Virus record (IMG/VR): IMGVR_UViG_3300020360_000085
Location: 128,001-192,000 of that record
Direction: 5' to 3' (one strand)
Length of the DNA: 64,000 nt
From: a virus
Lineage: Duplodnaviria; Caudoviricetes
The notes below the pieces were generated by a model that saw only the letters and a list, made by a program, of their open reading frames with translations, did not search any database and was not told the DNA's origin. A program made the position numbers and the translations under genes. Shown one piece after another: positions 51,416-60,592 of the stretch. How positions within the stretch are numbered: position 1 is the first letter of the stretch; the number at the start of each line of letters is the position of its first letter.

Positions 51416-51629
51416 TTGGCATAAAATACACAGCAAATTGCAAGGCACATGTACAACATGTGGAGGAGAGTTGCCTAACCATAAGGGTGTATGCCCTGTT
51501 GAAGGCCAGCAACTACTAGCAAGATTAGAACAGATTGACAATAGTGTAAAACATGTAGGCGATATTGCTGAAGACTTGATTAAAAGTTATAAAAAAATGA
51601 AAAGGTCATTTAAAAATAAAAATGTTTGA
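51402..51629 (+). CDS. Small Cys/His protein, possible zinc-binding
   Basis: CTTC..ELPNHKGVC; overlaps both neighbours. Confidence 0.55.
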   Translation: MSEIDWHKIHSKLQGTCTTCGGELPNHKGVCPVEGQQLLARLEQIDNSVKHVGDIAEDLIKSYKKMKRSFKNKNV

Positions 51630-54600
51630 TATATTTTACATAGGAGATAATCCCAAATTAAAAGAACTGTTGCCGTTTGCAAAACAGATAAATGATGTTG
51701 GCGAAATACAATCAAAAACAAGAATGTGTTGGTTAATAGAACCAAATATAGAAATAGTAGATATAGATATTTTTAATTTTAGGCCTGATATGTATGACAT
51801 GAAATATGAACATGTTTGGAAATGGGATTCAAATAATTATGGTGGTATAAGATTACTGCCTAAAACACAAAATGATGGTGTAAAAGAAATCAATAAAATT
51901 GTTTGTAAAAAAAGTTTTGAAATTTTAAATACTAAAACTCCTGCAAAGTATTTTGATAATAATCCTTATGCTACACATGTATGGTGCATAGATAAAGATT
52001 ATAAATTACCTGAAGATATAAATTGGGCACCTGATAATTTTGAACCAGATTTTATACATAGTTTTCATTTAAGAGGTCAATTAGAACATAAGTACCCTGC
52101 AGAAGAAGGCGGCATCAAATTATATCCTAAAGATTGGAAGACAGCAGATACAAAATATCATGGATTTTTAGATGCACAAATAATTTTTCCAGTATTTTAT
52201 GTAAAAGATGTAGAAGATTATTCACAACGCAATATCTTTTTAGATGATTATGTTTGGCTTGTAGATTCTAAATATAAAATAAATGCTAATTCGTTAGATT
52301 GGGTTCCTAATCCTTTTGAGGATAAAATGATACACAGTTTTAGAATGCCTTACCAACTTACAGAAAAATATCCAGACGAAATGGGCGGTATTAGATTAGT
52401 ACCTAAAGATTGGAAGACAGCAGAAACTAAAATACACAAAGATTGTCCTATTGAAGATGAAAATTATGATGTATTTTACACAAACAAAAAGTTTAATGCA
52501 GAAACATTTGAGTATTATGCTAAACGATCTGAAACAGATTGGTTTTGGGTAGTAGATAGAGACTATGATTTTAATGGAAAACTATTATATGTTCCTGCAA
52601 GGCATGAACGTGATTATATACATGTTTTTAAATGGGGACTAGAACATAGATATAGGCCTGAAATAACAGAACTTTGGGACGACAGAGTTTCAGGTATATT
52701 TCTAGTTCATAAAGAGTTTGACTTCACAAAAAGAAAACTGCATACAGATATAGTGCCTGTAAAATACGATATTTTCTTTACTAATGACATAAATGATTAT
52801 GTTACCTATAGTAGAAAAAGCAGAACAGATGCTTTTTGGTTAGTTGATGAAGAACATGTATTAACTGAAAATATAGATTATGTTCCAGAATATAGTGAGC
52901 AAAAGTATATTAATATTTTTAAAATACCTAAGCAATTAGAACACAAATACCCACGAAGTGTTACAAATGTAAGTGATAATCGTTGTGGTGGAATAAAACT
53001 TGTACCTAAAGATTTTAATACAGAAGATGTAAAATATCAAGGTTTACTAACAGATATAGAAATTATAGAATATGAAAAATTTGATAATGAAAAAGAAGGT
53101 AGGTCAAAGAGTAAAAACGATTGGTTTTGGGTTATAGACCCTGATGTAGAAGTTCTTGAGGACTTTAACTTTGACTTTATACCAGATACATGGGACGAAG
53201 GCAAAACTCATGTATGGCAAAAACTAAATCCAGTAACTGGCAGACAGTATGATTATGGTGGTGTTAGTTTATTTCCTAAGGTTGCACAAACAAAAGGAAG
53301 ACCCAAATACATAAGAGAACCAGCATGTACACAAAAAGAATATCCTGTATATAATCTTACTGCTTCTGACTATAAAAACGGCTTACAGAGCATTTACGAG
53401 CGTCTGACAGGGCAAACAAATACAGAAATGTATTGGGTAGTAGATGCTTTTACACGGCTGTCTGAGGACTTTGACTTTAGTTACTATCCTACACAATGGG
53501 ATAAAAATAATGTACATGTATTTGCAAATGAAGATGGAGAATACAGAAATGTACGTTTAGTGCCTAAAAAAACATTTTTAGAAAAACAATTTACAGACAA
53601 GGAAATAGCAAACAATAGTTTTGATAATTTAAAAGAAATGAATACAATAGCAAGTTTAAAACCTAAATGGCCTGTAGTTAAGTTAGATAATTTATCTGCT
53701 AAAGATTTTTACGATAAATTAAAAGATATTAAAGAGCCATTTGTTTGGACCATAGATCCAGATGTAAGAGAAAATTTTAAAGTTTTAAATGAAGGGTATA
53801 TGCCTGAAATTACAAATGTAGATAAAATACATTCTTGGCAAAAACAAAATTCATTAAACAATAAAGTGCATGGATATGGCGGCCTACGACTATGGCCCAC
53901 TAATATAGATTTTAAATCTATAAAATCAGAGCAACTGAAACTCAATAGATTTAAAAATTTACAATATGTAAAAGAAATAGGTTCTATAAGTAAACCATTT
54001 GACGTGGTTTACATAAGTTATCATGAACCATTTGCAGACAAAAATTTTACTAAATTACAGGATCATATTAGAAGCACAGATTCAACACTAAAACTTATAT
54101 GGATAAGAGATGTAAAAGGTATTTTTGAAGCACATAAACAAGGTGCTAATAGAGTACAAAGTAAAATGTTTTGGGTAGTAGATGCAGATGCAGTAATAGA
54201 CCAAGATTTTAAATTTGATTATATACCAGATGTATATGATGAAGAAGTTGTCCATGTTTGGGCGAGTAAAAATCCAATAAATGAACTTGAATATGGATAT
54301 GGAGGCGTAAAACTATTTCCAACAGAAATGGTTCAAAACGCAAACACTTGGGGGATTGATTTCACAACTGGTCTTAGTAATAGATTTAAGTCTATGCCAC
54401 AGGTTAGTTGTGTTACCAAATTTAATACAGATGCATTTAGCACTTGGAGGAGTGCATTTCGTGAATGTGTAAAATTAACACTTAACGAAGATGAGGAAAG
54501 TAAACAGCGATTACAAGCCTGGTTAAACACTAGGGGGAAAGGAAATTATACTAGGTCAGCAGTAAAAGGAGCATTAGAGGGGAACCAATTTGCAGAAGCA

Positions 54601-54675
54601 AATAAAAATAATGTAACTGAATTAAATAAAATAAATGATTATGAGTGGTTAAATGGACAATATAATAAGTCTTAA
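51622..54675 (+). CDS. Repeat protein of nine GT-like modules, the last a full GT-A domain (1017 aa)
   Basis: Nine copies of W-x-(I/V)-(D/E)...P...H...GG(I/V/L)xLxP(K), some degenerate; C-terminal FDVVYISYHEP...VKGIFEAH...FWVVDADA...AFRECVKL is homologous to 32926..33924. Confidence 0.75.
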   Translation: MFDIFYIGDNPKLKELLPFAKQINDVGEIQSKTRMCWLIEPNIEIVDIDIFNFRPDMYDMKYEHVWKWDSNNYGGIRLLPKTQNDGVKEINKIVCKKSFEILNTKTPAKYFDNNPYATHVWCIDKDYKLPEDINWAPDNFEPDFIHSFHLRGQLEHKYPAEEGGIKLYPKDWKTADTKYHGFLDAQIIFPVFYVKDVEDYSQRNIFLDDYVWLVDSKYKINANSLDWVPNPFEDKMIHSFRMPYQLTEKYPDEMGGIRLVPKDWKTAETKIHKDCPIEDENYDVFYTNKKFNAETFEYYAKRSETDWFWVVDRDYDFNGKLLYVPARHERDYIHVFKWGLEHRYRPEITELWDDRVSGIFLVHKEFDFTKRKLHTDIVPVKYDIFFTNDINDYVTYSRKSRTDAFWLVDEEHVLTENIDYVPEYSEQKYINIFKIPKQLEHKYPRSVTNVSDNRCGGIKLVPKDFNTEDVKYQGLLTDIEIIEYEKFDNEKEGRSKSKNDWFWVIDPDVEVLEDFNFDFIPDTWDEGKTHVWQKLNPVTGRQYDYGGVSLFPKVAQTKGRPKYIREPACTQKEYPVYNLTASDYKNGLQSIYERLTGQTNTEMYWVVDAFTRLSEDFDFSYYPTQWDKNNVHVFANEDGEYRNVRLVPKKTFLEKQFTDKEIANNSFDNLKEMNTIASLKPKWPVVKLDNLSAKDFYDKLKDIKEPFVWTIDPDVRENFKVLNEGYMPEITNVDKIHSWQKQNSLNNKVHGYGGLRLWPTNIDFKSIKSEQLKLNRFKNLQYVKEIGSISKPFDVVYISYHEPFADKNFTKLQDHIRSTDSTLKLIWIRDVKGIFEAHKQGANRVQSKMFWVVDADAVIDQDFKFDYIPDVYDEEVVHVWASKNPINELEYGYGGVKLFPTEMVQNANTWGIDFTTGLSNRFKSMPQVSCVTKFNTDAFSTWRSAFRECVKLTLNEDEESKQRLQAWLNTRGKGNYTRSAVKGALEGNQFAEANKNNVTELNKINDYEWLNGQYNKS

Positions 54676-55339: not shown

Positions 55340-55908
55340 TGAAAACAAAAGTTATAAATTTTTATGGCGGTCCTGGATCAGGAAAAAGTACTAAAGCCGC
55401 AGGACTATATTACAAAATGAATATGGCTGGATTTAGTGTAGAATTAAATAATGAGTTTGCAAAAGAATGCGTATGGGAAGACAATGTTCCTATGTTAAAG
55501 GACCAATTGTTTATGTTAGCACATCAGCACAGAAAAATTTTAAGATTAGTTGATAAAGTAGAATATGTAATTACAGATTCTCCTGTAATGTTAAGTGGAA
55601 TATATAGAGAGTTGTATAATGGTCCTTTATATAGTGATCTAATAGATAAGTTAGCAAGAGAATGCTATGACAAATATGAAAACATAAATTTTATGTTAGA
55701 CAGACCTAAAAAAATATTTAATCAAAAGGGGAGAGCACAAAACGAACAGGGTAGTATTAATATAGATAATGCAATAATAGAAATGTTTAAAACCGAAAAA
55801 CTTCCGTTTTTTTGGTTAAAAGGTCTAGAAGAAGAGGCTGTAGATATTGCTTTTAAATATATTGCTAAAAAAGGTTCTAAAGAACAATGGGAAAAATATT
55901 TATTTTAA
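55339..55908 (+). CDS. P-loop NTPase/kinase (NadR/AAA_28-like)
   Basis: VINFYGGPGSGKST Walker A; ITDSP; GRAQ lid-like motif. Confidence 0.75.
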   Translation: MKTKVINFYGGPGSGKSTKAAGLYYKMNMAGFSVELNNEFAKECVWEDNVPMLKDQLFMLAHQHRKILRLVDKVEYVITDSPVMLSGIYRELYNGPLYSDLIDKLARECYDKYENINFMLDRPKKIFNQKGRAQNEQGSINIDNAIIEMFKTEKLPFFWLKGLEEEAVDIAFKYIAKKGSKEQWEKYLF

Positions 55909-58335
55909 ATTAAATCTAAATCCTAACTGATAAATTTCTCTATTTTCAGTATCTAATTCAGCAGTTAAGTAAAATATTCCAAATGTATGTGTAAATCCAA
56001 ATTTGCCTACATATAAATCTTCTTTATGAGAATAATTTAAATTATTGTAACTTAGATAAGGATTATTTGAAAAAATAATATCTATTTTTCTAGTTTCGTA
56101 ATATTCTGCACCTAATGAAATATATGTATTACCTAATTTAGATTTAAAAACTTTTCCTATATCTGCAAATAAACTTCCTACAGTCATATCAAACTCATCT
56201 ACATGAACATTAAAGGTACTTTCTTCCTCTGTAAACTCTTTTACTTTACTTTGATGTACTGTAAAACCAATTTTACCAAATAATGTATCTGTGAATCCAT
56301 GTGTATATTCCATAAACATATTAATAGACTCTAATTCTAAATCTGCATTACCTATGCCGTACCATTTAGTTTTATTTGTTCCTACAAAATTATTTGTACT
56401 TAAACTTATTCCTGCATGAATGTTATCTTTACTTTCAAAATCAATACCTATAACTGATCCATTATATCTACCTGAAAAATCACCTACATATAATCCATAT
56501 CCATTATCATTACTGTAACTGTAGCCTATCATATTTGTATTATCTACAATTTTACCAAATAAATTATTGCCTTTAGTTTGATTTCTTAAATCATTTAAAA
56601 TCATTGTGCTTCTAAAAACACTATTTGCATAGCCTAATGGCTTTGTTACAATATCGTGTTGCATTTCAGCAAAAGGAGGATCTAAAACTTGGAAAAATGT
56701 TGCAGTTCTATAACTGTCATTATTATTTTCTCTCCAACCAATAAAATCGTACCAGTATTCCCCGTCTATTTCAACAGGATGATATTGATTTCCATTGTTA
56801 AATCTAGGAAAATCATTATATAATCTAAATGTATTACCGTCATTTAGTAAAACATAAGTTTCACTATTACTATCTACAATGTCTAAATCTCCATCATTAT
56901 CAAAATCTACAATAGTAAGATAGCCTTCTCCGTTCCATAAATTAGGATTGTTTAAACCACCATTTGCATAAGTTGTATCTCCATATTGATTTGTAACATC
57001 TGTAAAACTATTGCCTCCATTGTTTTTAAAGAATTGTATCATTCTTCCTGTGTAATATGGATTATGCTTTGTACTGGCAACTACAATATCTAGAAAGCCA
57101 TCATTATCAAAATCAATAACAGCCATACTATTTGCATTACCGTTTTCGCCATAAAAGTTATCTGGTAGTTCTAACCAAGGTCTATTTCTCCAATCATTAT
57201 TTCCGTCATTAAAAAATACTGCACCTGCACTATTTTCAAATGTTTCTCCAAAGCCATATTCTTTTGCCCATCCTGGATTAAACCAACCCACAGAAACATC
57301 TCCATGGCCATCATTATCAAAGTCTCCTATTGCGGCCGTTGTCGCCCACAATCTTTTACCATGATCTAATCCAACTGTATAAGGTTCAGGTATTGAAGGA
57401 AAATTTTGATTTGTTATAAAGTTTCCTGTGCCGTCATTTATTAGCATTGTAAAAGGCACTTGTTTATGATCCCAAGTATATCTATTTACAGGGAGAAAAA
57501 TATCAACATCTCCGTCGCCCTCACTATCTCCTATAGCAATATCGTGTGACCACATAGGACCAATGTCTGTATTAAAAAAGAAGTCATGTGGTAAGTTTGT
57601 GTGGCTCACATCAACTAATTTACCATTATTACTTAAAATAAGTTTACTTACAGAAAAGAAATCGTCTATTCCATCTCCATTAAAATCTGCAACTGCAGGA
57701 TTTCTAAAAGTACCACTCCAACCACAATCTCTAAAAGGATCACCTTGTGCTTCTTGTGTTGTAAATTGCAAATTAGGTCCTCTTCCGTATAAACAAGGAG
57801 CACCGCCCTCAAAAATATCTTGTCTTAGTTCAAAATGACCTGTACCATCATTTATCCACGCCATGAGTGTAGATTCTGGCACATAGTCTTCGTCTCCTCC
57901 ATACCACATCCACAAATAAAAGTCCCAATGCCCATCTCCGTTAAGATCTGCTTGTCTAACCATGCCATCAGATACAAATGCAGTTGGAGTATTACCAGCA
58001 GTACCACAATCATCAATTGTACAACCATTATGTTGACCATATATTGTAGTTTGCAAAAAACCATAATCTGCTATCTTATATTTTTCTGTAGGTGCAGGTA
58101 GTCCTGATGTAGTAAATGGTGTCATAGTATGTACAACTTTTATTTCATCACTATAACCATCAATGTCAACACTTGTAACAATTTCCCAATCATCAAATGG
58201 AATACGTTTATCAGTGTTTGTCGTTGTGCCTCCGCTTGTTGGAGGTGTAGGTGTTTCTGTAGAAGAACCTCCTCCGCTACTAGCACAGGCGGTCATTAAA
58301 AGTATAATTAAAACACTAGCAATATTCTTTAACAT
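55900..58335 (-). CDS. Lipoprotein with FG-GAP/VCBS repeats and C-terminal beta-barrel-like domain (autotransporter-like)
   Basis: Signal peptide with lipobox MTA|C17, Ser/Gly/Thr/Pro linker, six D(F/L/S)xxDGxxD repeats, C-terminal amphipathic strands ending YQLGFRFNLK. Confidence 0.7.
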   Translation of the reverse strand: MLKNIASVLIILLMTACASSGGGSSTETPTPPTSGGTTTNTDKRIPFDDWEIVTSVDIDGYSDEIKVVHTMTPFTTSGLPAPTEKYKIADYGFLQTTIYGQHNGCTIDDCGTAGNTPTAFVSDGMVRQADLNGDGHWDFYLWMWYGGDEDYVPESTLMAWINDGTGHFELRQDIFEGGAPCLYGRGPNLQFTTQEAQGDPFRDCGWSGTFRNPAVADFNGDGIDDFFSVSKLILSNNGKLVDVSHTNLPHDFFFNTDIGPMWSHDIAIGDSEGDGDVDIFLPVNRYTWDHKQVPFTMLINDGTGNFITNQNFPSIPEPYTVGLDHGKRLWATTAAIGDFDNDGHGDVSVGWFNPGWAKEYGFGETFENSAGAVFFNDGNNDWRNRPWLELPDNFYGENGNANSMAVIDFDNDGFLDIVVASTKHNPYYTGRMIQFFKNNGGNSFTDVTNQYGDTTYANGGLNNPNLWNGEGYLTIVDFDNDGDLDIVDSNSETYVLLNDGNTFRLYNDFPRFNNGNQYHPVEIDGEYWYDFIGWRENNNDSYRTATFFQVLDPPFAEMQHDIVTKPLGYANSVFRSTMILNDLRNQTKGNNLFGKIVDNTNMIGYSYSNDNGYGLYVGDFSGRYNGSVIGIDFESKDNIHAGISLSTNNFVGTNKTKWYGIGNADLELESINMFMEYTHGFTDTLFGKIGFTVHQSKVKEFTEEESTFNVHVDEFDMTVGSLFADIGKVFKSKLGNTYISLGAEYYETRKIDIIFSNNPYLSYNNLNYSHKEDLYVGKFGFTHTFGIFYLTAELDTENREIYQLGFRFNLK

Positions 58336-58645
58336 GTTTACAAGTCCCCCTAAAAGTGAATCCAGGACAAGTGCAAGTGCCCTTTTCTGTATCTATATGA
58401 TAAATGTTTCCTTTAGAACCTGTAACCTGTATAATATGACTTTGTAATTCCTCAGGTCTCTCTCCAATTTTTTTAAACTTACGTCTTGATTTACTAAATT
58501 GTGTGCTAGGCACATTTAATACTTGTACTTCAGAATCTATGTTTGGTTGATATGCTATTAGTTTACCTGCAGAGTTTATATGGTAAATGCCATTGTTTAC
58601 TTTGTACTTACCCCAATCAGTAACTTCTTGTAATATCTCGATCAT
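58316..58645 (-). CDS. SWIM zinc-finger protein
   Basis: C-terminal CTCPGFTFRGTCKH (CxC...CKH); strong SD AAGGAG. Confidence 0.8.
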   Translation of the reverse strand: MIEILQEVTDWGKYKVNNGIYHINSAGKLIAYQPNIDSEVQVLNVPSTQFSKSRRKFKKIGERPEELQSHIIQVTGSKGNIYHIDTEKGTCTCPGFTFRGTCKHVKEYC

Positions 58646-58703
58646 AATTTACTCCTTACCTTAAATTATTAGTATATTATAGCAAATTATATGTAAAAGT
58701 CAA
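58643..58703 (-). promoter_or_regulatory. Early sigma70-type promoter (TTGACT-N16-TATAAT, extended -10 TGc) plus conserved leader/RBS
   Basis: -35 at 58703..58698, -10 at 58681..58676; 27 bp of leader/RBS/ATG identical to 60590..60616. Confidence 0.75.
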
Positions 58704-58796: not shown

Positions 58797-59384
58797 ATGT
58801 ATTATTCAGAATCAATGATTCAGATGGTCGAGGATTTACATGCTCAAGCATCTGCAATGGAGAAAGAAGTAAAGCATATGATGGAACTTGAAGGTCGTGC
58901 ATTAGGTATAGAATTAGACAAAAGAAAAAGTCCAAGAGATTTATACAACGAACTTATGGAACATCAAAATGCTAAGGCAGAAGAAGAAGCAATGACATGG
59001 GCATACGTTCCATGCCAAATGGCAGAAGAAGATCCTAATTGCTATCCAGCAGATAGTTTTGATCATTCTTATGATGACCATGCTGAAGTTCATGTTGAAG
59101 AGGAAGCCTGTGTGCATGTTGAAGAACATGTAATTGAAAGCGAAGCACCCGCAGATATGCCGGTAGAAGAACATGTAGAACCTGCACCAGCAGAAGAGCA
59201 TGTTGAGCCTGCACCTGTAGAGGAACATATGGAACCTGCTCCAGTAATGGAAGAGGCACCAATGGAAGAACATGTAGAACCTGCACCAGCAGAAGAGCAT
59301 GTTGAAGCACCAGCAGTTCAAGAACCAGGTTTTGACGCAAGTGCAGAAGCACCTGCAGAAGACCCTAATCAACCAGCAGGTTAA
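58797..59384 (+). CDS. Acidic, His/Pro-rich repeat protein (EEHVEPAP repeats)
   Basis: Strong SD; helical-looking N-terminus; C-terminal half has P(A/V/M)EEH(V/M)EPA repeats and no Lys or Arg. Confidence 0.75.
   Translation: MYYSESMIQMVEDLHAQASAMEKEVKHMMELEGRALGIELDKRKSPRDLYNELMEHQNAKAEEEAMTWAYVPCQMAEEDPNCYPADSFDHSYDDHAEVHVEEEACVHVEEHVIESEAPADMPVEEHVEPAPAEEHVEPAPVEEHMEPAPVMEEAPMEEHVEPAPAEEHVEAPAVQEPGFDASAEAPAEDPNQPAG
59166..59305 (+). repeat. Coding tandem repeat containing an exact 41-bp direct repeat
   Basis: gaagaacatgtagaacctgcaccagcagaagagcatgttga at 59166..59206 and 59265..59305. Confidence 0.9.
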
Positions 59385-59479: not shown

Positions 59480-60592
59480 TTACACGATATATTTAATGTA
59501 TCTTTTACTGAAAGTCTCCCTTAACTCTTCAGTAAGATCAGTTCTTACATTAAACTTGATTTGATAGTCCTTCATAATTGTTCTAAATAAGAACACAACC
59601 ATTTCAGGTTCAAAGTTATCAAAACTAAACTTTACAATATTGTTAAGTCCTTTTTTCAACTCATCTGAGAAGACACCTTCATTTTTTTCGTATCTTTCAT
59701 TAAGTTCGTATGCAAGTCCTACTACTAGTGAGTATTTTGCACTGATTTCTGAACTAACTTTATTATCCAGTTTTTTAACTTTACCATCTAATACCTGATC
59801 AGGATTTGGCAAATGTTGTGCAACTTTTCTGTGCTCAACAAATTTAATTGCCATACCTTCTCCTATAGCACCTGCAATCTCGGCTTTTTGCTCGAAATTA
59901 CTAGCATTATCAAAACCATCTGCTCCTAGCATTTCACTAACAAAAGTCCAACTTCTTGGTGTAGCGAATGCTTGGGAACTAGATTTTGCATCAAAGTCAA
60001 ACAAGTCACCTTTACTGTAAGTTAAATAACCTACAACATCAGGGTGTACATTGTTATTAACCGCCCATTGTTGCCAATCATCAAAATTGACGTCCATGTT
60101 GATGTGACGGAATCTGTTTGCCAACGGTGCCGGCATACGGAAAGTTACACCTCTGTCTGTTTCACGGTTACCTGCCGCAACAATTCTTACATTATCAGGT
60201 AAAACATATTGTCCTACTTTTCTGTTAAGAACTAATTGGTAAGCCGCCGCCTGTACACTAGGAGGTGCTGAATTCAACTCATCTAGGAAAAGTACCACAG
60301 TATCAAATTCACTTGCGAATTCCATACTAGGTAGGTCACTTGGAGGGGACCATTCCATTAAGTTGCTTTCTGGATTTCTAAAAGGATATCCTCTTAGATC
60401 AGTTGGTTCAAGAAGTGCTAAACGCATATCTATCATAGTAGCATTACCTATTTCGCCACTATTAACAATTTGTTCAACAAGTTCTGATTTGCCTATTCCT
60501 GGTGCTCCCCAGATAAAAATAGGCCTGTTTACTTGAAGTGCCCTCTTAATGATAGGCTTTACTTCAGTTGCTCTAGTTTTTAAAGTTTCCAT
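59480..60592 (-). CDS. MoxR/dynein-related AAA+ ATPase (AAA_5-like)
   Basis: WGAPGIGKS Walker A, LFLDELN Walker B, AAGNR sensor 1, LANRF Arg finger, TPRSW sensor 2. Confidence 0.88.
   Translation of the reverse strand: METLKTRATEVKPIIKRALQVNRPIFIWGAPGIGKSELVEQIVNSGEIGNATMIDMRLALLEPTDLRGYPFRNPESNLMEWSPPSDLPSMEFASEFDTVVLFLDELNSAPPSVQAAAYQLVLNRKVGQYVLPDNVRIVAAGNRETDRGVTFRMPAPLANRFRHINMDVNFDDWQQWAVNNNVHPDVVGYLTYSKGDLFDFDAKSSSQAFATPRSWTFVSEMLGADGFDNASNFEQKAEIAGAIGEGMAIKFVEHRKVAQHLPNPDQVLDGKVKKLDNKVSSEISAKYSLVVGLAYELNERYEKNEGVFSDELKKGLNNIVKFSFDNFEPEMVVFLFRTIMKDYQIKFNVRTDLTEELRETFSKRYIKYIV

Follow-up and report, generated by a model that had tools for sequence, protein, structure and literature searches.

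The locus considered here raises the question of why a T4-like phage should carry a gene for what looks like a bacterial surface protein, and of where and when such a protein would act. The window under analysis, 64,000 nucleotides in length, spans bases 128001-192000 of an IMG/VR viral record 250.5 kb long (IMGVR_UViG_3300020360_000085; GC 33.5%), and the coordinates given below are those of the window unless the record is named. This record is a T4-like myovirus contig, with Portal_T4 at 109 kb, gp23 at 105 kb and gp25 inside the window, and its family B DNA polymerase is located at 204 kb. An earlier note, prepared from the letters of the window alone, had described the open reading frame (ORF) 55900-58335 as a lipidated FG-GAP beta-propeller joined to an autotransporter-like barrel, and every element that it observed was confirmed. 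In our reading, the gene probably encodes a lipidated type Va autotransporter which is made early in the infection of a diderm host and converts the surface of the infected cell, most likely by masking. The architecture, formed by lipoprotein signal, tether, propeller, helix and barrel, is well supported; the timing, the topology, the ligand and the biological role we infer. The features of the gene are the following.

55900..58335, minus strand: autotransporter gene, the whole ORF, 811 amino acids (aa), stop codon at 55900-55902
58285..58335, minus strand: signal peptide (aa 1-16) and lipobox Cys17, from the lipobox pattern and a conserved column
58201..58284, minus strand: flexible tether rich in Ser, Gly, Thr and Pro (aa 18-45), from a low predicted local distance difference test (pLDDT) score and the CASGGG start
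56680..58200, minus strand: passenger, a seven-bladed FG-GAP (integrin-alpha-like) beta-propeller (aa 46-552), from profiles and fold matches
aa 130-138: calcium-type loop DLNGDGHWD
aa 217-225: calcium-type loop DFNGDGIDD
aa 270-278: calcium-type loop DSEGDGDVD
aa 338-346: calcium-type loop DFDNDGHGD
aa 408-416: calcium-type loop DFDNDGFLD
aa 477-485: calcium-type loop DFDNDGDLD
from aa 522: degenerate seventh loop EIDGEYWYD
56572..56679, minus strand: alpha-helical linker (aa 553-588), predicted in the pore of the barrel
55903..56571, minus strand: type Va translocator beta-barrel (aa 589-811), from AlphaFold2 (AF2) and structural matches

The N-terminal sequence, MLKNIASVLIILLMTAC, fits the lipobox pattern with its cysteine at position 17. 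The layout consists of K3, a hydrophobic core and then L-M-T-A-C17, which corresponds to the PROSITE-type pattern, and this pattern-based call bears out the lipobox that had been proposed. The pattern is matched by 106 of the 122 family members, with near-variants in most of the others, and the Cys17 column is invariant across the alignment of 66 sequences. It was therefore possible to recognize by pattern the Sec-type N-terminal signal of a type Va autotransporter, in its lipoprotein form, together with a lipobox cysteine of the NalP/SphB1 type. The whole-chain AF2 model, built on the alignment of 66 full-length homologues, had a mean pLDDT of 88.7 and a predicted template-modelling score of 0.76. 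Residues 13-37 were below a pLDDT of 50, indicating that the linker is disordered and agreeing with its previous description as flexible, and the CASGGG at the start of the tether is kept across the family. The mature protein is acidic, with a pI of 4.4 overall and 4.1 in the propeller.

The passenger was assigned by both sequence profiles and fold. Pfam FG-GAP_3 (PF13517) scored 63.2 bits (cut-off 26.9) in seven stretches, so far over the cut-off that the match is not attributable to chance, and Pfam FG-GAP (PF01839) scored 30.8 bits (cut-off 22.1); the FG-GAP profile is thus present in about seven copies. The closest protein by sequence profile was integrin alpha-V (E ~1e-6), while Foldseek gave as the closest for the propeller the Psathyrella velutina lectin (PVL), a lectin of GlcNAc and sialic acid, with an E of 8.5e-9, and also CRTAC1. 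Generic seven-bladed propellers superposed on residues ~83-553 of the whole-chain model with Z ~21-22. The six calcium-binding-type motifs quoted in the earlier note were all found exactly, and in the alignment the Asp and Gly columns of these loops are invariant in phage and cellular copies alike. The seven-bladed fold with Dx(D/N)xDGxxD loops is accordingly that of the integrin alpha head and PVL, with the same FG-GAP profile match and Asp-rich calcium loops, and calcium binding is predicted; however, the identity to those proteins is 13-16% and the propeller is fused here to a bacterial outer-membrane anchor. The protein contains five Cys, and those of the passenger are paired close together (105/110 and 181/204), an arrangement that is tolerated in autotransporter passengers (PMC8151025). 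No family was found for the autotransporter protein in PHROGs or NCBIfam searches, and tblastn against ~50,700 phage records returned only an FG-GAP stretch of 21% coverage in Ralstonia phage RsoM2USA. As judged from these comparisons, the autotransporter appears to be without a known relative in cultured phages.

The C-terminal region was identified by its structure. The last 272 residues, modelled alone, reached a pLDDT of 93.0, and in an exhaustive structural search with this C-terminal model the top match was NalP (Z 23.5, root-mean-square deviation (rmsd) 2.8 Å, 232 residues), followed by EstA (Z 22.8), Hbp (Z 21.0), AIDA-I (Z 20.6) and AaaA (Z 20.5). These five best matches are all autotransporter translocators, and BrkA (Z 18.8) and EspP (Z 16.8) appeared further down the ranking; the other strong matches were 12-stranded barrels, namely KdgM (rmsd 1.6), LpxR, FapF and NanC. 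Foldseek aligned the barrel with EspP at an E of 2e-7 and a TM score of 0.67, and the search with the whole-chain model agreed on autotransporter translocators. In the AF2 model the connector helices were located at 555-578 and 583-586 and the beta strands spanned residues 591-807, in keeping with the helical connector and the C-terminal amphipathic strands that had been noticed in the sequence. The helix takes part in the superpositions. The structural alignments begin at residues 13-25 of the C-terminal model, covering its predicted helix region at 16-47, and in whole-chain numbering the superpositions of EstA, EspP and Hbp start at residues 553-555 and that of NalP at 564. Both a 12-stranded barrel and a pore helix are present, then, in the predicted structure. 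The protein ends in Q-L-G-F-R-F-N-L-K, which fits the polar-x-G-x-x-aromatic-x-hydrophobic consensus of the usual beta-signal for the beta-barrel assembly machinery (BAM), and most relatives end in ...LGFxLxF; a C-terminal BAM beta-signal is consequently in place.

NalP (Neisseria meningitidis) and SphB1 (Bordetella pertussis) are lipidated autotransporters (PMC8151025), and the phage protein shares with them the lipobox signal, the C-terminal helix with a 12-strand translocator, and a passenger expected on the surface and retained by lipid (PMC8151025). Unlike theirs, its passenger is an FG-GAP propeller and not a subtilisin, since the protein has no Pfam match to Peptidase_S8; the identity to NalP is ~8%, with no match here to the PF03797 hidden Markov model (HMM), and it is found in a lytic T4-like phage rather than in a bacterial pathogen. 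It is an architectural analogue of the NalP/SphB1 subtilases, not a member, and as such the earlier proposal of a NalP/SphB1-type lipoprotein autotransporter has found structural support in the signal, the FG-GAP passenger and the helix plus barrel of NalP/EstA/EspP type. Barrel and pore helix also superpose on those of Pseudomonas aeruginosa EstA (PDB 3KVN) and AaaA, at Z 22.8 and 20.5, which likewise have a globular, probably uncleaved passenger in place of a beta-helix; in contrast to the phage protein, these passengers are an esterase and an aminopeptidase, with neither lipobox nor propeller.

Considering this architecture, a route to the surface can be proposed from what is known of type V secretion and lipoprotein biogenesis, which provides the export, the acylation, the outer-membrane targeting, the BAM insertion and the outside position of the passenger (PMC8151025). 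The precursor would be exported by Sec, Cys17 would be acylated by the Lgt, Lsp and Lnt of the host, and the protein would be carried to the outer membrane, where BAM would insert the C-terminal barrel of 12-strand type with the linker helix in its pore. The acidic, presumably calcium-binding propeller would then be exposed outside the cell, anchored through the barrel and, probably, through the lipid on the 28-residue tether as well. The passenger most likely stays attached, because there is no protease domain and no conserved cleavage motif; in particular, the EspP-type Asn-Asn motif was not seen in the helix consensus, which is weak negative evidence. A different topology was also considered, in which the lipid would sit in the inner leaflet, the barrel would be a second anchor and the propeller would face the periplasm with an envelope role, e.g., in lysis or remodelling. 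It is in favour of this arrangement that the inner leaflet is the default destination of lipoproteins carried by Lol and that the orientation of lipidated type V proteins is still unsettled (PMC8151025), but the helix region coincides in the superpositions with the pore helices of NalP, EstA and EspP, whose passengers lie outside, and calcium-dependent FG-GAP propellers such as those of integrins and PVL are typically extracellular. We consider a periplasmic propeller very unlikely, and a passenger on the outside is retained in what follows.

The requirement for Lol and BAM implies a diderm host, as had been suggested, and the cellular homologues point to the same type of cell. These homologues share 36-40% identity with the phage protein and have the lipobox, the propeller and the barrel, and they are found among housekeeping genes (rpoD, dnaG, gshB, tonB) on contigs of up to 478 kb. 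The carrier genomes, of 0.7-1.5 Mb, belong to marine Gammaproteobacteria of SAR86 type; the RpoD adjacent to one cellular copy shares 98% identity with an RpoD deposited under the name "SAR86 cluster bacterium". This lineage is abundant, and up to a 2017 study no virus of it had been isolated (PMC5332604). The full-length gene was detected in 5 of the 61 genomes searched of that bacterial family, and a scan of genome contigs, swamped by the generic FG-GAP pattern, yielded one full-length cellular locus only. In the tree, the eight confirmed cellular copies fall within one clade of 32 rows, on a branch of 0.5 with 100% support. This unrooted tree implies one exchange between phage and cell, and either direction would fit, as the cell and phage rows are the two sides of one branch and the direction is not readable from it.

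Taking into account these cellular copies, the gene could instead be a host-type auxiliary gene for adhesion or ligand capture, doing in the phage the same job as the SAR86 homologue, that is, binding polysaccharide, particles, cells or a nutrient; the virocell would then be kept attached or fed, rather than other phages blocked. The full-length homologues with lipobox, propeller and barrel among housekeeping genes of SAR86-type genomes agree with this explanation, as do the likeness of the propeller to those of lectins and adhesion proteins (PVL, with its E of 8.5e-9, integrin alpha-V and CRTAC1) and the invariance of the calcium-site residues in phage and cellular copies. On the other hand, a gene found in full length in only 5 of 61 family genomes does not belong to the core functions of the host, and no consistent pathway emerges from the genes around the cellular copies. 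Diversity is also much greater among the phage copies, which are in all cases coupled to a SWIM gene that occurs in phages only. We regard the adhesin explanation as possible but somewhat unlikely, and surface conversion by the phage as the better account of the locus.

This SWIM gene and the promoter in front of it bear on the moment of expression. The elements upstream of the autotransporter gene are as follows.

58316..58645, minus strand: SWIM zinc-finger gene, 109 aa, first of the cassette, by Pfam SWIM
58652..58657, minus strand: ribosome-binding site of the SWIM gene, AAGGAG, read from the sequence
58676..58703, minus strand: sigma70-type promoter TTGACT-16 nt-(TG)cTATAAT, 11 of 12 positions, driving the SWIM-autotransporter unit

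Pfam SWIM was matched with an E of 7.7e-5 and 22.6 bits (cut-off 19.6). The SWIM and autotransporter genes share positions 58316-58335, which verifies the overlap of 20 nt reported for the pair. Wherever a full-length phage locus includes upstream sequence, the autotransporter gene is immediately preceded by a SWIM ORF of 98-113 aa that overlaps or abuts it (the window pair and loci L002-L008, L096-L116 and L123-L125), while the genes flanking the pair vary between phage lineages; the pair being constant where its flanks differ, it travels as a cassette. Upstream of the cellular, SAR86-type homologues there is no SWIM gene, the neighbours of the SWIM protein are all viral, and tblastn of this protein against the same ~50,700 phage records gave no match. 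The small, cytoplasmic SWIM protein and the autotransporter probably work as a translationally coupled cassette.

The promoter, on the minus strand from 58703 to 58676, is the best match in the region, and the sigma70 site with its extended -10 TG was found as described at 11 of 12 positions. It is kept in L002 and L003, and the distant L100 and L103 have an analogous TTGACA-17 nt-TGcTATAAT at -55/-58, just past a terminator, with SWIM again as the first gene of the unit and the promoter at the same distance. Genome-wide there are 22 perfect TTGACN-N15-18-TATAAT sites, an excess of ~8-fold over the 2.65 in shuffled sequences, and 21 of them lie on the minus strand. No perfect promoter occurs on the plus strand of the baseplate, giant-protein and glycan block, at 120-186 kb of the record, and 12 of the 22 are in the arm at 186-250 kb that holds the DNA polymerase, where the site at 58676 is the first. 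Another of the 22 is located at 670-697. The T4 late-promoter motif TATAAATA showed no enrichment or strand bias (6 on the plus strand and 11 on the minus strand), so that late genes are not definable by it. An early-type transcription of the cassette by the RNA polymerase of the host has, then, good indirect support from promoter sequences. Of the early promoter claimed beforehand, the site itself stands, and its early character is supported indirectly by the genome-wide excess, the minus-strand bias and the recurrence in relatives, with the timing itself deduced from them.

These data also bear on whether the protein could be a late virion or tail-fibre component, or whether a cellular gene could have been misassembled into a viral contig. 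Propellers, FG-GAP and others, do occur in phage structural proteins, as BFVD matches indicate, and the gene abuts the plus-strand baseplate and glycan block. Nevertheless, the lipobox, the BAM-type barrel and the beta-signal are incompatible with the assembly of virions in the cytoplasm, and the gene lies on the strand opposite to the baseplate block under its own sigma70-type promoter. As for misassembly, it is excluded because the same cassette is present on dozens of independent viral contigs, including some of 323-329 kb with T4 portal genes. This leaves practically no room for a part in the virion or for an artefact of assembly.

The gene has 432 homologues of ~800 aa in marine metagenomes, and marine metagenomes from 12 studies contain the stretch of the window as well. 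When gene neighbourhoods were examined for representatives across the whole tree, homologues from 92% down to ~37% identity were in phage contexts, on contigs of up to 323-329 kb, next to genes for a MoxR-type ATPase, DUF2201, glutaredoxin, and T4 baseplate and T4 portal proteins. A relative is present on 23 IMG/VR contigs, of which 20 carry full-length family members, with SWIM wherever upstream sequence exists; L117 and L118 (675 aa, 29% identity) hold more distant relatives without a SWIM ORF. Compared with the 84%-identical L002 copy, the ratio of nonsynonymous to synonymous substitution rates (dN/dS) was 0.11, with 0.08 in the propeller and 0.17 in the barrel, values which indicate that the gene is under purifying selection. 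The two modules do not always agree in similarity. Relative to P0001, P0005 is 66% identical overall and 44% in the barrel, whereas P0013 is 57% identical overall and 70% in the barrel, and this discordance suggests that phages have swapped passengers and translocators as modules. The comparison involved P0001 against P0005, P0013 and P0016, and loci L006 and L100. The gene is thus part of a conserved cassette with the SWIM gene, is widespread in a phage clade and has a single cellular sister clade, three points that are absent from the earlier note.

Phage-borne autotransporters are already catalogued in BFVD, uncharacterised. The uncultured-phage proteins A0A6J5KUW0, A0A6J5L9T3 and A0A6J5R861 are auto-named "Autotransporter beta-domain containing protein", and A0A6J5L9S5, an 831-aa VCBS-repeat protein, matches the whole model with an E of 3.7e-22; the identity of these proteins to the model is 10-13% and their names are automatic only. 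The entries come from uncultured Caudovirales and have predicted autotransporter barrels or VCBS propellers, and phage-borne type V proteins may be commoner than the literature suggests.

With respect to function, the propeller would bind a surface or environmental ligand and in this way give the infected cell a converted surface. Its likeliest use would be the masking of a receptor or surface glycan, by which superinfection would be blocked and progeny would not be lost on debris, following the logic of T5 Llp. The latter is an early lipoprotein that masks the FhuA receptor and also protects the progeny (PMC8829019). Both cases have a lipoprotein signal in a lytic phage, early expression (deduced here) and a protection of infected cell and progeny (proposed here), but no homology was seen, the autotransporter having no PHROG match, Llp is small and has neither barrel nor propeller, and the analogy is functional only. 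Adhesion is the main alternative use. We would put surface conversion by masking of a receptor ahead of an adhesive role like that in the host, an order that comes from our own weighing; nothing computed separates masking from adhesion, or from the superinfection exclusion, aggregation or grazer evasion that the earlier note proposed. A more specific proposal, which we offer only tentatively and hold to be unlikely as a whole, is that the SWIM-autotransporter pair is an early "surface conversion" module of uncultured marine T4-like jumbo phages (~250-330 kb) infecting SAR86, whose propeller would bind the phages' own receptor or surface glycan, excluding rivals and sparing progeny, and that the SAR86 clade would record one exchange between them and their host.

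Several observations weigh against a surface-converting type Va autotransporter and have to be set beside the evidence for it. Passengers of known autotransporters are mostly beta-helices. The type V secretion of a seven-bladed propeller is predicted only, from models, and a 2022 autotransporter review contains neither the word "propeller" nor a mention of phages. In the barrel, DSSP splits the strands into 13-14 segments and not a clean 12, so that the count of twelve rests on superposition. PF03797 gave no Pfam match at E <= 0.1, and hence none of its HMM over the gathering score, and the barrel profile against PDB sequences gave nothing relevant and no autotransporter, by which the type Va membership rests on predicted structure. 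Moreover, a phmmer search of 1.84 billion representatives with the barrel alone recovered nothing beyond fragments and proteins built in the same way, while among the nearest clusters in the ESM Atlas, found by language-model features, 94 of 100 carry PF03797; by sequence the barrel is an orphan, and as modelled it counts as a type Va autotransporter on structural grounds, outside what the present Pfam model covers. The lipid leaflet, and with it the topology, is unsettled even in known lipidated autotransporters (PMC8151025), and it is in the topology that the structural reading is least certain. The genes beside the cellular copies (DUF1214, a PDZ protein, a cyclase, DUF411, CobW) show no consistent pathway. 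Finally, the promoter evidence is statistical and the expression timing is deduced from it. Three RNA libraries contain contigs, 90-99% alike, that extend over parts of the autotransporter and SWIM genes, but these prove little, and one of them also spans the region upstream of the promoter; they were rejected as evidence of expression, DNA carry-over being possible.

The surroundings of the cassette in the window may be described briefly. On the plus strand, 723-24348 comprises the gp25-like baseplate wedge gene followed by ORFs of 1509 aa and 6236 aa, the latter presumably a giant virion or baseplate-fibre protein. The sugar-tailoring block at 28900-51415, also on the plus strand, holds phosphomannomutase, NeuB-like, UDP-glucose dehydrogenase-like and carbamoyltransferase genes together with nine ORFs that match Pfam Radical_SAM, of which five have a SPASM domain at the N terminus, and two more with matches below the Pfam cut-off. 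It is followed on the same strand, at 51622-54675, by a 1017-aa protein with internal repeats and a weak Glycos_transf_2 match in the last module, which adjoins the cassette in the close relatives L003-L005. At 55900-55908 the autotransporter gene converges with a plus-strand AAA_28 gene (thymidylate-kinase-like PHROG) in a 3' overlap of 9 nt, which is the border between the plus- and minus-strand blocks and where no terminator-like site was found. Beyond the cassette, between its promoter and the MoxR-type ATPase, the only plus-strand gene of the minus-strand arm (58797-59384) encodes a very acidic protein of 195 aa with Pro/Glu/His-rich repeats and no family match. The MoxR-type AAA ATPase itself (59483-60592, minus strand) shares 47% identity with its counterpart in the Pseudomonas jumbo phage PA5oct group, the closest cultured relative among the genes tested.

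Lytic marine phages have rarely been shown to re-dress the surface of their host, and the gene studied here would provide them with a large, conserved, apparently early outer-membrane display protein which uses the Lol and BAM machineries of the host. If the predicted structure holds, type Va autotransporters would be extended to a lipidated form with a calcium-binding, seven-bladed propeller as the passenger, and the strictly coupled SWIM partner may hint at a new step in the regulation or export of autotransporters. The value of the finding lies in the conserved early cassette, the new type of passenger and the link to SAR86. As the only cellular relatives found are in SAR86-type genomes, the gene offers a marker by which a host could be assigned, and the assignment tested, for this cosmopolitan clade of jumbo phages known only from uncultured material. 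Should the SAR86 proposal be true, it would be the first gene-level link between a group of phages and SAR86 and would add a new class of passenger, other than the beta-helix, to type V secretion.

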